DNA from: Oculatellaceae cyanobacterium bins.114
GTDB taxonomy: Bacteria > Cyanobacteriota > Cyanobacteriia > Elainellales > Elainellaceae
Reading direction: 5' to 3'
NCBI GenBank assembly: GCA_033764315.1
Contig: JANRJA010000018.1
Span: 1 to 64,000 of the forward strand
Length of the DNA stretch: 64,000 nt
Below, piece by piece: positions 4,640-64,000 of the stretch (positions are counted from its first letter, which is position 1; every line of letters begins with the position of its first letter). The position numbers were made by a program, and so were the translations under genes. The notes beneath the pieces were generated by a model. The model did no database searches. It was given only the letters and a program-made list of their open reading frames with translations, and was not told the DNA's origin.

Positions 4640-4932
4640 AGGAAGCGAACATGAACTAGAAGCTAATTCTTCACGATTGATGAGTTTAATCATGAATTAT
4701 TTATGAACACTAGCGGTTGAGCATTGACCACCGACTGTATAAATTGTGATAGTTATTTCAGTTCCTAATACGCAGAATCCCCTAAAGCTGATATTAACTT
4801 TTGTAAGAAAAGCGTTGTAATGGATCGCTTTTCCCTGATCCGCCGAGTTTCATCTGCCTGTTGGGATATATAGACTTACGGAGCGAAAATGCTATGCTCC
4901 ACTGTGTGTGATGTGTGGAGTGAATTTTAAGA

Positions 4933-6417
4933 ATGGTTTTATCTTCTGTATCCCTAGATGATGTACTACTTCCCAAACCATCGCTCGCAGCAGATGCGAG
5001 AATGAGTTCGATTTTGGTAGAAGTGACGCAAGCGATCGCTCTCCCTTCCAGCAAGTTGTTTGGTACGGATGGCATTCGTGGACGGGTAGGAGATTTGCTG
5101 ACGGCACCCCTGACCAGACGTGTCGGGTTTTGGGCGGGGCAAGTGTTGCAACAAACAACGGCGTCTCTTGGGCCAGTCATTGTAGGGCAAGATTCTCGAA
5201 ACTCTAGCGATATGCTGGCAGCGGCGTTGTCAGATGGGTTGACAGCAGCAGGGGTAGAGGTTTGGAATCTAGGGTTATGTCCAACGCCAGCGGTTGCTTA
5301 TCTCACCAGCACGACTGGGGCGATCGGTGGTGTCATGATTTCTGCGAGTCACAACCCCCCCGAAGATAATGGCATCAAGTTTTTTGGATCAACAGGCACT
5401 AAGCTATCGAGTCAACTACAAGCTCAAATTGAAGCCGCTATTCGGGGCGAAGGGGCCGGGGCAGACTCAGCCGTCATACCTGTTCATCAGGGACACTATT
5501 GCGATCGCCCTGAGTTGGTTTCAGCCTACGTTACATCCCTGCATGCGTCTTTGCCTCAGATCAACTTGCATGGGTTGCGGATTGTTTTAGATTTAGCGTG
5601 GGGTGCCGCTGCCCGTTTAGCTCCTCAGGTGTTTGAGGCGTTAGGGGCTGAGGTGATTTGCTTACATAACCGCCCTGATGGCGATCGCATTAATGTTAAT
5701 TGTGGCTCAACCCATTTGGAACCGCTAAAAGCGGCGGTGCAAGAACACAAAGCCGATATCGGATTTGCTTTTGATGGCGATGCCGATCGCGTCCTAGCTG
5801 TCGATGCAGAAGGTCGCATTGTCGATGGAGATTACATTCTCTTCTTTTGGGGACAAGCCCTGCAACGGGCCAACCAACTCCCTCACAACACTATCGTTTC
5901 TACGGTGATGTCAAACCTGGGTTTTGAGCGAGCTTGGGAGCGTCAAGGTGGCACCTTAATTCGCACCGCAGTTGGCGATCAATATGTTCATGCTGAGATG
6001 GTGAAACGGGGTTGCGTACTGGGTGGTGAGCAGTCGGGGCACATTCTTTGTCGCCACTACAGCGTTTCTGGAGATGGCATTTTAACGGCATTACATCTAG
6101 CCGCACTGGTGCAGCAATCGGGTACTACTCTGACAGAGATGATGCAACACAGTTTTCAGACCTATCCTCAGTTGTTGCGAAATGTGCGCGTTGAGGATCG
6201 CGATCGCCGTCTCAATTGGCAAACCTGTGAGCCTGTGCAACACGCGATCGCCGCAGCCGAAACAGCAATGGGAGATCAGGGACGCATTTTAGTGCGAGCC
6301 TCTGGCACAGAACCCGTTATTCGAGTCATGGTTGAAGCGGCTTCTGCTGAATTGACCCAATATTGGTGTGACACCCTGGTTGCAGTCGTACAGCAGCACT
6401 TGGGGAAAGGGTATTGA
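4933..6417 (+). CDS. glmM: phosphoglucosamine mutase
   Basis: [36 protein letters not shown]; start uncertain. Confidence 0.95.
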
Positions 6418-60883: not shown

Positions 60884-61012
60884 CTTAAACGACAATTATG
60901 CGGAAATAATCTATATAAGTAGTAGATTTGGGCGTTAGGCATGAATCATGCTGCCTATCTACCCCAAATTGGGATCTTAGGCAGAAAATTTCAGTCTAAT
61001 AACTTGTTAGGC
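60884..61012 (+). other. attC-like recombination site 1 (degenerate, 129 bp)
   Basis: CTTAAAC...GTTAGGC ends, partly complementary arms (ATTATGCGGAAA / TTTCAGTCTAAT), internal palindromes. Confidence 0.5.
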
Positions 61013-61139
61013 GCAATCATTGGAGAACTCTTTTAGAAGAGCGCAATTATTAACCCAGCAATCAAAGTCGTAAAGGAAGATTCAGTGCTTTAGGGGACTC
61101 CAAGCTAAAAAATGCTAGAACAACGGGTACCAATTTAAT

Positions 61140-61859
61140 ATGACAAATCCCAGCAAAGAATCTATTGCTGTCCAAATTTCGCCTTCAACTAAGACGGTTG
61201 GATTCTGGTCTGCGGTACTTGCTACAGCGTTCAGCATCACATACATCGTGGGACAATTTGCCGAATGGTTGGGACTAATGGGGTCTCAAGGAGGTCCCGC
61301 GAGTGGTAGTACGCCTTTTGGGCTGGTGGTATTGCTAACACCGTCACTCTTCCTTGGTTCCTCGTTTCTCGTGCTTGTCGTGAGCATTCACCAACTGACG
61401 CCTCCCGACAGAAGAATCTGGAGTCATGCTGCCGTTGTATTCGCTACCATTTACGCAGTCCTGATCAGCATTGTCTACTTTGTTCAGCTCACGCTCGTTG
61501 CACCTCGTGTTGCTCACGGGCAGATCGAAGGCATTGAGGCGTTTCTATTTGTGCCCTTCGATTCATTTCTGTATTCCGTGGATATTCTTGGGTACAGCTT
61601 CATGAGTGTGGCTACCTTGTTTGCTGCACAGGTATTTACGGGTAGCGGGTTATATCGGGTTGTGCGGTTGTTTCTGATCACAAATGGGTTGTTACTTCCC
61701 TTCATCGCGCTACAAATATATTTCCATTCGTTGATATGGGTTGCAGCACTTTGGGCAGTGACGTTTCCGGGATCAACGTGGACACTTGCTATCCTCTTTC
61801 GACGTACTGCAACTACAGGAACTATTCCTAACAGTTCGGTGGATGAGACTCAGGAGTAG
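61140..61859 (+). CDS. multi-TM hypothetical membrane protein (cassette 1)
   Basis: 239 aa, about 6 TM; no HIP1 site noticed; stop 17 bp before attC2. Confidence 0.85.
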   Translation: MTNPSKESIAVQISPSTKTVGFWSAVLATAFSITYIVGQFAEWLGLMGSQGGPASGSTPFGLVVLLTPSLFLGSSFLVLVVSIHQLTPPDRRIWSHAAVVFATIYAVLISIVYFVQLTLVAPRVAHGQIEGIEAFLFVPFDSFLYSVDILGYSFMSVATLFAAQVFTGSGLYRVVRLFLITNGLLLPFIALQIYFHSLIWVAALWAVTFPGSTWTLAILFRRTATTGTIPNSSVDETQE

Positions 61860-61876: not shown

Positions 61877-61963
61877 GCCTAACAACCGCGCTGCACCGGA
61901 ACGTTTCAGTATGGTCGGTTTGTTGCGAAGGTTGTTTGCGTCCGGTGAGCGCGACCGTTATGC
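61877..61963 (+). other. integron attC site (87 bp)
   Basis: R'' GCCTAAC, 5 nt, L'' CGCTGCAC ... L' GTGAGCG, 5 nt, R' GTTATGC; extended stem with one extrahelical base. Confidence 0.85.
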
Positions 61964-62113
61964 TGCCTCAAGTTATCTGTGGGAGCGCAAGCTGAAATCT
62001 CTCTGTGAGACACAGTGCCCAAGTAGCGATGAGTTTTTTGCTGAGACGCAATTGGGAGGTGATCGGTAAGCTACAATTCCTAATAGATTATTCTTTTCAT
62101 CGCAGGTTGGGTA

Positions 62114-62404
62114 GTGCGAAAACAGGAAGTCCTGACATTACTGGTAAAGCACCAAAACACGCTGAAGGATTTTGGCGTAAAGTCTCTGATGCTGTTCGGC
62201 TCAGTGGCAAGAGATGAAGCGCGAACAGACAGCGATGTTGATCTGCTAGTAGAGTTTGATCGTCCGGTCGGGCTGTTTGCCTTTGTACGCTTGAAACGAT
62301 ACCTGGAAGAGATTTTAGAGAGTTCAGTTGATCTGGGTACGCCCGACTCCCTCAAACCTTATTTACGAGAACCCATTTTTCGGGAGGCGATTCGTGCCTT
62401 CTAG
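62114..62404 (+). CDS. minimal nucleotidyltransferase antitoxin (MntA-like)
   Basis: FGSVARDEARTDSDVDLLVEF (GSX10DXD). Confidence 0.92.
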   Translation: MRKQEVLTLLVKHQNTLKDFGVKSLMLFGSVARDEARTDSDVDLLVEFDRPVGLFAFVRLKRYLEEILESSVDLGTPDSLKPYLREPIFREAIRAF

Positions 62405-62732
62405 AGATTGGCAAAATCGAGTAAGGGATGTACTAGCCGCGATCGCAGAAATCCGAGAGTTCACCAACGAAATAACCTTTGAGGAATTTCAGAGCGATCG
62501 CAAAACAATCAGAGCAGTTTTGTATAACTTTGCAATCATTGGTGAAGCAGTTCGTGGCATTCCGCCTGATGTAGAAGCGTTACATCCTGAAATTCCCTGG
62601 GACGATGTACGTGGAATGCGAAATATTGTGATTCACGAGTATTTTCAGGTGAATCTATCGATCATCTGGCAAACGATTCAAGAAGACATTGTTTTATTAG
62701 AGATCTCGCTTCGTCAACTAATAAACCCTTAA
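62394..62732 (+). CDS. HEPN/DUF86 RNase toxin (HepT-like)
   Basis: IIGEA, PEIPW, GMRNIVIHEY (RX4HXY); GTG overlapping the MNT stop. Confidence 0.92.
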   Translation: MPSRDWQNRVRDVLAAIAEIREFTNEITFEEFQSDRKTIRAVLYNFAIIGEAVRGIPPDVEALHPEIPWDDVRGMRNIVIHEYFQVNLSIIWQTIQEDIVLLEISLRQLINP

Positions 62733-62773
62733 GCCCGATTGATTACGCTGTTAACTTTAGTAGATGAGCTTAG

Positions 62774-63235
62774 ATGCAACAGTCAGAGGATGCGAATACA
62801 CCGAAACCATTGAGCCGAGTACAACGCTGGGAAATAGTACGAACTTTGCTACAACGTGAAAACTTGAGAATTGAGGCAAGAGAGGCATTTCGTCAGGCTT
62901 ATCCCAATGCCCCAGAGGAGATGCTAACAACGGCTGTTTTTCATACTTGCGTTGATGGAATTGGAGCCGCAATAGATTGGCTAGTTGATTTAGAACTATT
63001 TTTACGTGAACCGAGTCGAGAACTTGATATGGGTACCACATATTACCTGTTGTACCATCTTTACAATTGGTATCAGTTTCATGTATTGCTTCCAGATGGA
63101 AGGACAGGCGTGTTAGAACGTCTTAAAGAAATTAGGGAGTTGATTGCAGATGGAGAGATAGAGGCAATTCTTGCAACAGTTGAGGAGTTAGAAGCGATGT
63201 TTGAAGGTGGTCGAAATAATCCTGATTTTCAGTAA
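62774..63235 (+). CDS. hypothetical protein (cassette 2)
   Basis: 153-aa ORF; stop 6 bp before an R''-like ACATAAC. Confidence 0.75.
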   Translation: MQQSEDANTPKPLSRVQRWEIVRTLLQRENLRIEAREAFRQAYPNAPEEMLTTAVFHTCVDGIGAAIDWLVDLELFLREPSRELDMGTTYYLLYHLYNWYQFHVLLPDGRTGVLERLKEIRELIADGEIEAILATVEELEAMFEGGRNNPDFQ

Positions 63236-63241
63236 GCAGCA

Positions 63242-63268
63242 ACATAACATAGCCTCTGAGCCGGACGA
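63242..63268 (+). other. left half of a disrupted attC-like site 3
   Basis: ACATAAC-ATAGC-CTCTGAGCCGGACG resembles the attC2 left arm; no complementary right arm found. Confidence 0.55.
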
Positions 63269-63484
63269 GGTCAAGTAGATCTTGAAGAATTCTGTTCATT
63301 CTCATTGCTCATTACATACACAGACATGTTCATTTAACTGACTCTAAATATGGATTTACAGCATCTATTTTGGAGTCAGTTATTTTGTCTATTCGTGTTA
63401 TATTTTTTGGTGCTTTAGCGTCTTTTTACTTTGAATGGGAGTTAGGTTGCTGTGCTCATTCTCTTGCTTTAAGGATTGGCAATG

Positions 63485-64000
63485 TCATAGAGCTAATGGC
63501 TTAGCAATAGGAGATCCCTTGCGTTTTAAGGATGCAAGATATTTGGCTTCATCGTAGGCTTCCCGGTTCTTCCAACACCGAAACAAAATGCGAATCCACT
63601 TGAACGCCAGTGACCGCATCGCCGCGGGATGGGATTTGCCCTTAGACCGTTGCATCTGGTAATAAGCTTGTGCCCAGCCACAATGATGACGGCTGTGATT
63701 GGCCCACTCCACAAAGGTCTGTCTCAAGAAGATCGGACAACTCCAACGCCAATGCACCCAGTTCTTTTTGCCGCTACTCTCTTTAACCGGCGCAATACCG
63801 AAGTAGCACATCATCTGCTGGGCATTCTCAAAACGTGTCCTATCTTCTCCAAAAGCTGCCAGTAATCGCGGAGCCAGATGCTCTCCAGCCCCAGGTAGAG
63901 CCGCAAACCACGCCGCATCCGAAAAGCTGGTAAAGCACTGGTCAATTTTGAGCGTCAGTTCCACTAAGCTTGCCAACAGGGGCTTTAACTGACCGATCAA
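63485..64000 (-). mobile_element. IS110-family transposase/recombinase, C-terminal part (5' end outside the window)
   Basis: LPGAG..LA..LLA..G...RF, GIAPVKESSGK, AYYQ..R.KGK.H.AA.R.LAFKW.RIL (Transposase_20-type domain). Confidence 0.9.

Follow-up and report, generated by a model that had tools for sequence, protein, structure and literature searches.

Insertion sequences that target attC sites disrupt and remodel integron cassette arrays. The known examples are proteobacterial IS1111 elements, which carry their guide downstream of the transposase gene. ISPa21 and ISPst6, both of the IS1111-attC group, and the group IIC-attC introns have been described as inserting close to the 5' end of attC in the antisense orientation relative to the cassettes (PMC3001079), and Siddiquee and colleagues have demonstrated seekRNAs for the attC-targeting elements ISKpn4 and ISPst6 (PMC11187229). 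In the bridge RNA of IS621, the handshake bases are described as following the right target guide (PMC11208160, PMC11208158), and our reading of RNA modules below follows the IS621 model of those two papers.

The window considered here, by which we mean the whole stretch of 64,000 nucleotides analysed, has at its far end part of an IS110-family element. An earlier note on this DNA described the transposase as lying next to a broken attC and proposed that its 3' non-coding region holds a guide programmed against attC cores. We think it quite probable, however, that positions 63246-64000, 755 bp in all, are the right-hand part of an element of the IS110 family that measures about 1.75 kb and has inserted at the 5' (R'') end of an attC, in antisense orientation to the cassettes, with its guide RNA upstream of the transposase gene, and that the stretch 63280-63484 and the 12-mer within it lie outside the guide machinery. 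The guide and the attC of this particular copy are known by homology, because its left end and left flank lie outside the window.

The transposase and its relatives

The minus-strand open reading frame at 63485-64000, open at the window edge, encodes the C-terminal 171 aa of an IS110-family DEDD transposase. It matches Pfam PF02371 (Transposase_20) with E=1e-16, and its segment GIAPVKESSG fits the serine motif G--P----SG given for the IS110 family in PMC11187229. Full-length relatives are about 417 aa long and have the domains PF01548 and PF02371; the best of them is 94% identical over the window fragment. The N-terminal DEDD domain, PF01548, is thus present in the full-length relatives, and that region of the window copy is beyond the window edge. 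One relative (P0001) scores 174.7 bits, against a cut-off of 140, on the NCBIfam model NF033542 ("IS110 family RNA-guided transposase"), and similarity to proteins in the PDB is confined to the N-terminal domain (IS621, E=6e-8; ISCro4, E=9e-7).

Our genome scan for related transposases comprises 79 loci, referred to as L001 and so on. None of them matches the window exactly. At the nucleotide level the closest is L001, with 84% identity, and L004 has 76%; L002 is 89% identical over query residues 1-416. A search of plasmids for further copies of the right end returned only distant matches to the transposase gene, at no more than 68.5% identity and none of them over the non-coding end. The plasmid records matching the window transposase gene number 102, none reaching the non-coding end, and include enterobacterial plasmids (L080; CP024484.1 64136-69400) with a 412-aa IS110-family transposase gene that is 68% identical in nucleotides over 265 nt.

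Element boundaries and the right terminus

The features at the right-hand boundary of the element are as follows.
63237-63245, minus strand: right target flank, ATGTTGCTG
63246-63247, minus strand: core dinucleotide TT (AA on the plus strand), common to target and element, as judged from multi-copy relatives
63246-63279, minus strand: conserved right terminus (left donor arm), ...CTACTTGACCTCGTCCGGCTCAGAGGCTATG+TT, from the alignment and 31 motif hits
63485-63487, minus strand: stop codon of the transposase gene

Genomes with several copies of an element fix both of its boundaries: in the relatives the left end starts TTATGGGGAGACGA and the right end finishes ...CTATGTT. The contig of L001, at 1736 bp, is exactly one element copy, running from TTATGGGG to CTATGTTA. 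Homology of L001 and L004 to the window, as found by blastn, spans the whole 3' non-coding region and stops at about position 63245, and eight aligned elements have ...CTACTTGACCCCGTCCGGCTCAGAGGCTATGTTA in common and diverge right after ...CTATGTTA. The contention that the 3' non-coding region is part of the insertion sequence is borne out by this homology and by the divergence of all aligned relatives at the same point. TT is found at both junctions in 26 of 27 elements, with CT in L038, from which the target reads left flank-TT-right flank and the junction of the circle CTATG-TT-ATGGGG. The relatives have no terminal inverted repeats, and a short core is common to target and circle junction.

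The terminal 31 nt of the element recur, beside unrelated flanks, in 31 motif hits. Since the element boundary has been mapped in the relatives, 63246-63279 is element terminus, and only 63237-63245 and the shared AA at 63246-63247 can be target. What had been taken for a third attC that stops after its left arm is, on the alignment of the relatives and the 31 motif hits, mostly the right terminus of the element itself. On the plus strand, CAGCAACAT followed by AA and C reads as an R''-like box, ACATAAC, 7 nt past the stop of the open reading frame at 62774-63235. The terminus also contains an outward promoter-like site on the minus strand, TTGACC-17-TATGTT, whose -10 is the TATGTT at 63251-63246 and whose -35 is the TTGACC hexamer at 63274-63269 to which the earlier note had rightly drawn attention; TTGAC is retained in 27 of the 31 right-end motif hits, the window being counted among them. 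Such a site could drive antisense transcription into the neighbouring cassette.

We considered the right terminus as a mimic of an attC arm and rejected the idea, which the alignment scores favour only weakly (mean 3.33, versus 2.4 with a standard deviation of 1.33 for random 26-mers); attC1 scores 6, and L077 alone reaches 12. Motifs resembling the right end (...CGTCCGGCTCAGAGGCTATGTTAG) are also found without a transposase gene, at L077:4640-4666, L045:3410-3440 and L041:8885-8906, and may be remnants of earlier elements or donor-like off-targets. The copy in L077 is inserted beside one of these solitary motifs and not at an attC. At 3.86 kb, the copy at L016:4664-8520 exceeds the usual length of about 1.85 kb; the additional DNA, some 2 kb, separates the transposase gene from the right terminus.

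attC sites, cassettes and an integron integrase

Upstream of the element on the plus strand, the window holds one intact attC and a cassette-like segment.
61877-61965, canonical top strand plus: intact attC, 78.6 bits; the model hit is at 61884-61977 on the minus strand, and the site was in the training set
61966-63236, plus strand: cassette-like segment with three small genes
62114-62404, plus strand: nucleotidyltransferase
62328-62732, plus strand: HepT-like RNase
62774-63235, plus strand: open reading frame of 153 aa without a family match

Directly left of TT, in most of the 27 loci with both ends defined, is an imperfect palindrome of about 90 nt starting ...CTAAC. An alignment of this repeat from 20 loci, together with the window's own repeat, has bulged bases on one arm and 11 consensus pairs, of which nine show compensatory changes. 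The covariance model made from it (R1) was built in the transposase orientation, hence the minus-strand hit for the window attC. Its hits number 77 over 63 loci, with 72 on the strand of the transposase, and form arrays of up to 10 copies. The earlier note had suggested looking at the insertion sites of other copies, and most of these turn out to be attC-related: an attC adjoins the left end of the element, at TT, in 28 of 35 related loci, 8 of the 28 being outside the training set. The seven loci with no attC at the left end are L003, L023, L026, L032, L041, L051 and L077. The cassette open reading frames are on the strand opposite the transposase, with a stop codon next to the TT end of the repeat; the element therefore occupies the 5' (R'') end of the attC, in antisense orientation to the cassettes. 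The repeats have R'' and R' boxes and belong to arrays whose cassettes hold a single ORF each. The attC of the window, which is downstream of the open reading frame at 61140-61859, is the sole intact one that the model found there.

An integron integrase is encoded in L045 (8201-9166, plus strand), matching TIGR02249 with 465 bits against a cut-off of 265; it is complete, lies 1.8 kb from the right end of the element and is divergent from the cassettes. Since this integrase is next to the array, the repeats are genuine attC sites, at least in L045. The integrase scan of the other loci covered 63 open reading frames of 270-420 aa, and no match to Phage_integrase was found among the 46 window open reading frames scanned (drawn from those of at least 150 aa). 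In L045 the element has inserted into a true integron, at one of its first attC sites.

Some further observations concern the cassettes and their neighbourhood. The nucleotidyltransferase and HepT-like RNase genes of the window (62114-62732) overlap by 77 nt and form a pair of the toxin-antitoxin type. At 61007-61054 the window reads GTTAGGC...TTATTAAC, with two direct GCGCAAT repeats; its box-like ends are not ordered as in an attC, and the model of attC has no hit there. Cassette arrays around these elements also contain a reverse-transcriptase (RVT_1) open reading frame and shorter IS110-family transposases (L023:9443-10540, L023:7811-9007, L024:1083-2162 and L041:7401-8447), so that several kinds of mobile element share these arrays. 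In an Acidobacteriota genome, five copies (L062-L066, each at about 4713-6290) have a related right end, ...CCCTCAGATGGGTTGTT, and an upstream RNA scoring 36 bits; their left flanks are palindromic-looking and contain TAAC, and attC-like targeting may therefore extend beyond the cyanobacteria.

A bridge-RNA-like structure upstream of the transposase gene in the relatives

When both non-coding ends of the relatives were compared with the reconstructed targets by an unbiased k-mer search, recurrent same-strand matches appeared in the left end and not in the right. The left-end alignment contains repeated modules, and the consensus from 29 distinct left ends consists of two units, each made of a stem, an internal loop and a hairpin. 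The 18 pairs of this RNA are 96.9% paired, versus 40-50% when slid, and its covariation score is 0.276 versus 0.106, a value equalled in none of 500 shuffles. A covariance model of the two units (R2) gave 103 hits at E<=0.01; nearly all loci have a hit upstream of the transposase gene, where the primary hit always lies, and the hits include distant relatives in Proteobacteria, Acidobacteriota, Myxococcota and KSB1 on which the model had not been trained. Among the R2 hits listed, none is on the sense strand between the transposase stop and the right end, and within the window the best R2 score, with filters off, is 5 bits (E=0.6). A guide in the 3' tail is thus not supported, because the relatives carry their guide RNA at the other end, which in this copy is beyond the window. 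The earlier proposal that the element is aimed at attC cores is supported for the lineage, and its placement of the guide in the 3' region is not.

In the first unit, the 5' strand of the internal loop (the target loop) is T(G/C)CA followed by six hypervariable bases; the column entropy of this variable guide is 1.05 bits, while that of the scaffold is 0.33 and that of the 3' strand 0.18. The 3' strand, ACUAACAUAU, is constant and is the complement of (A)TATG-TT-AG(T), which is to say of the core, the AG of the R'' box and the last bases of the element. In the second unit, the donor loop has a CTCAG(A/G)GG that agrees with the subterminal right end throughout the 29 elements: the loop reads CTCAGAGG in all 4 that have this type of right end, and CTCAGGG in all 25 that have the other. 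The donor-loop covariation amounts to one clade-level switch. The window terminus at 63246-63279 has the CTCAGAGG form, matched by the donor loop of relatives. The CCATAA of the donor loop is the reverse complement of TTATGG.

The correlation between guide and target in the relatives is modest. Aligned without gaps, a guide matches its own attC arm at 6.54 of 10 positions versus 5.87 when permuted (p=1e-4, n=35), and the anchored score is 2.83 versus 2.47 of 5 (p=0.007, n=35; p=0.02 for the 28 distinct guide sets); these statistics are weak because all of the targets are similar. The insertions of L004, L008, L013, L045 and L077 fit the guide poorly.

Most of the cyanobacterial relatives have, about 125 nt upstream of the first target loop, another one that is nearly invariant.
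L005:4688-4759, L014:4688-4759, L019:4683-4754 and 22 other distinct sequences: second target-type loop

The 6-nt variable guide of this second loop differs from that of the first. Among 27 insertions of two-loop elements, the first loop fits better in 15 and the second in 7, with 5 ties, and a single element makes use of both, its copies in L005 and L069 fitting the second loop and that in L032 the first. We tentatively suggest, as a reading with somewhat less than an even chance of being correct, that these are attC hunters of the IS110 rather than the IS1111 group that arrived independently at the IS1111-attC geometry, and that most of the cyanobacterial members have two target loops, each with its own guide, and one donor loop, addressing two classes of attC arm. 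In this reading the window element belongs with the one-loop subclade.

The 3' non-coding stretch and the 12-mer

Between the right terminus and the transposase stop codon are the following features.
63280-63484, minus strand: variable part of the right-end non-coding region, common to L001 and L004 only
63335-63382: hairpin with arms at 63335-63348 and 63369-63382
63441-63452, minus strand: 12-mer on the transposase strand, CAGCAACCTAAC, inverted-repeat partner of 63237-63248

We found no convincing open reading frame in 63249-63484, in agreement with the earlier description of non-coding DNA between the attC-like flank and the transposase stop. The variable stretch is absent in L002 and L030, where only about 45 nt separate the stop codon from the right end. 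The hairpin is also as described, except that its arms are 14 nt long and 93% matched, and not about 16 bp; it is found in L001 (12 nt, 100%) and in L004 as well, and L003 and L006 have unrelated perfect hairpins in the same position. As a whole the non-coding right-end region folds no better than shuffled sequences (z=-1.59). Searches against Rfam gave nothing at the gathering score in the whole 64-kb window or in L001, L009 and L047, and for 63000-64000 at E up to 10 there were only two chance-level matches to eukaryotic families.

The sequence GTTATGTTGCTG (63248-63237, minus strand) has one other match with at most one mismatch in the 64 kb, GTTAGGTTGCTG at 63441-63452 on the plus strand, and a repeat search reports the two as a 12-nt inverted repeat of 92%. 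The 11/12 match to the reverse complement of the flank is thus present as sequence. About 0.28 matches with at most one mismatch to the 12-mer are expected per 64 kb, and two or more were seen in 1 of 100 shuffles. An RNA of the transposase strand would read CAGCAACCUAAC at this place, and if the 3' non-coding region encoded a guide of the seekRNA or bridge type, this could act as an extended right target guide by base-pairing with GTTAtGTTGCTG, the top strand of the attC core and its flank. The polarity of the match is what one would expect of a right target guide, which is complementary to the top strand of core and right flank, and a predicted hairpin of 5 bp has the 12-mer in its loop. A downstream guide is indeed what IS1111 elements have, ISKpn4 and ISPst6 being described as targeting attC (PMC11187229), and a match of this quality is rare: in addition to the low expectation in the window, only 4 of 930 foreign pairs of right end and flank attain 11/12. 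However, L001 and L004 are the sole relatives with the same 3' region, hence the sole ones with homologues of the 12-mer, and the homologous positions read AAATAATTTAGT and AAGCAACTTGAT, respectively, both without a CUAA able to pair with the invariant TTAG. The L004 segment matches its own flank at 8/12. Covariation of the 12-mer with the targets had been named beforehand as the test, and over 31 elements the right ends match their own flanks at 7.84 of 12 positions versus 7.77 for foreign flanks. The window segment attains 10/12 against four foreign flanks, and so it resembles a generic box rather than its own flank. The absence of the region from L002 and L030, the lack of a bridge-like structure in the R2, Rfam and folding results, and the upstream position of the structured RNA in related elements count against a guide in this region as well. 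We thus consider a guide encoded in the 3' region very unlikely, and the same small chance attaches to the 12-mer acting as a guide; the claim that it is an attC-core guide founders on its lack of conservation in L001 and L004 and on own-flank matching that is no better than foreign. Coincidence is the most likely explanation of the match. A 6-mer common to the right end of L004 and its own flank, AACTTG, was likewise rejected as a guide match because it is out of register with the window 12-mer and, by our estimate, about 1.8 such 6-mers are expected by chance.

Two other explanations leave the guide aside. As the earlier note had offered by way of alternative, GTTAGGT at 63441 might be the R' of a long, decayed attC occupying 63237-63452 (R'' at 63242-63248, R' at 63441-63447), with the insertion sequence ending just past the stop codon. 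There are indeed box-like sequences at both ends, in the right order on the plus strand, but the stretch is collinear and homologous within the insertion sequences of L001 (84%) and L004 (76%) in other genomes, and for this reason we reject GTTAGGT as an R'. The L001 contig is moreover bounded by the ends of the insertion sequence, the terminal 31 nt are found beside unrelated flanks in 31 motif hits, and the attC model gives no hit on 63237-63452, all of which leaves a decayed attC with hardly any probability. It is also conceivable that the variable stretch, which has the transposase gene on one side and the terminal motif on the other, is an optional passenger like ssr9 of ISPpu9, which is described as using the insertion sequence for its own spread and as being unneeded for transposition (PMC12288879). 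Close relatives differ in the way that such a module would predict, the stretch being present in the window, L001 and L004 and absent in L002 and L030, and unrelated sequences with strong hairpins are found at the same place in L003, L006 and L034. Yet the 79 loci contain no solo copy of the stretch, nor is it bounded by another, internal copy of the end motif, and a passenger module is in our view an unlikely explanation. We prefer to regard 63280-63484 as probably an accessory spacer. It looks dispensable, because L002 and L030 do without it and right ends match their own flanks no better than foreign ones.

Proposed mechanism and its meaning

The steps proposed here for an element with its guide upstream are based on sequence and on publications about IS621 and seekRNAs. 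The element would excise as a circle, and the putative right-end promoter would then read across the junction CTATG-TT-ATGGGG into the left end, yielding the RNA and the transposase mRNA. The hypervariable 5' strand of the target loop, T(G/C)CA and the 6 nt after it, would pair with the attC arm left of TT, and the constant 3' strand, ACUAACAUAU, with TT-AG; after strand exchange ACUAACAUAU could also form a handshake by pairing with the ...TATG at the end of the element itself. The donor loop would bind both ends of the element by pairing, the right at CTCAG(A/G)GG and the left at TTATGG. The stretch 63280-63484, 12-mer included, would take no part in the guide machinery. For the window copy, the guide RNA and the remainder of the interrupted attC should be found beyond base 64000, where the left end is expected as ...CCCCATAA on the plus strand, followed by the remaining attC. 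The "broken attC" of the window is thus read as an insertion sequence terminus, and the guide is to be sought past the window edge.

A cyanobacterial lineage with an upstream IS110-type guide, using the same site and orientation as the IS1111-attC elements, suggests that the two have converged on attC, a landing site that is both plentiful and safe. Both the mechanism and the class of target are already known. A search of the main text of freely accessible papers turned up no cyanobacterial attC-targeting IS110 element with an upstream bridge RNA and no RNA with two target loops, although the supplements of Durrant and of Siddiquee may already list such elements. The potentially new part could be the two-target-loop RNA of the relatives with long left ends, which, if true, would be a natural case of multiplexed targeting by one bridge RNA.

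Comparison with known systems

The group IIC-attC introns resemble the elements studied here in inserting close to the 5' end of attC with antisense orientation to the cassettes and in carrying an outward promoter, as described in PMC3001079, but they are retroelements with a reverse transcriptase, and there is no homology. ISPpu9 is likewise of the IS110 family, with a palindromic-repeat target and an optional downstream non-coding module, ssr9, according to PMC12288879; in contrast to ssr9, neither solo copies nor bounding boxes of the module were found here.

The likeness to the bridge RNA of IS621 and the IS110 elements applies to the relatives only, which have a left-end RNA with two modules of stem, internal loop and hairpin, supported by covariation. 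As in IS621, the loop's 5' strand has the top-strand sequence on the left of the core, its 3' strand complements the core together with its right side, a handshake-like complement to the donor end comes after the right target guide, and the core is of 2 nt. The core is CT in IS621 and TT here. The target guide here is not visibly over the core and the donor guide is 5 nt from it, the handshake-like stretch is 4-5 nt long, versus 2 in IS621, and many of the relatives carry two target-type loops; the proteins are similar in the N-terminal domain only (E=6e-8).

With the IS1111-attC group (ISPa21, ISPst6, ISKpn4 and ISPa25), compared here by description only, the elements have in common a DEDD transposase with a PF02371 C-terminal domain, a position near the 5' end of attC, antisense to cassette transcription and with a putative outward promoter (PMC3001079), and an RNA-guided choice of the attC end (PMC11187229). 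The IS1111 transposases are given as 330-350 aa long in PMC11187229, versus about 417 aa in the relatives here, the IS1111 guide is downstream whereas the structured RNA here is upstream, with no such guide in the 3' region, and the hosts here, unlike those of the IS1111-attC elements, are cyanobacteria. The IS1111 group is marked by subterminal inverted repeats of 7-17 bp. A 9-10-nt match of GGGAGACGG with CCGTCTCCC, a possible subterminal inverted repeat, is visible in the L005 family, and no end-to-end subterminal pair occurs among the 25 longest inverted repeats of L001, L005 or L014. Because of the upstream RNA, the transposase of about 417 aa and the lack of clear subterminal inverted repeats, the element is by its features, and as placed against the published descriptions of the IS1111-attC elements rather than their sequences, of the IS110 group and not the IS1111 group, while being IS1111-attC-like in its behaviour.
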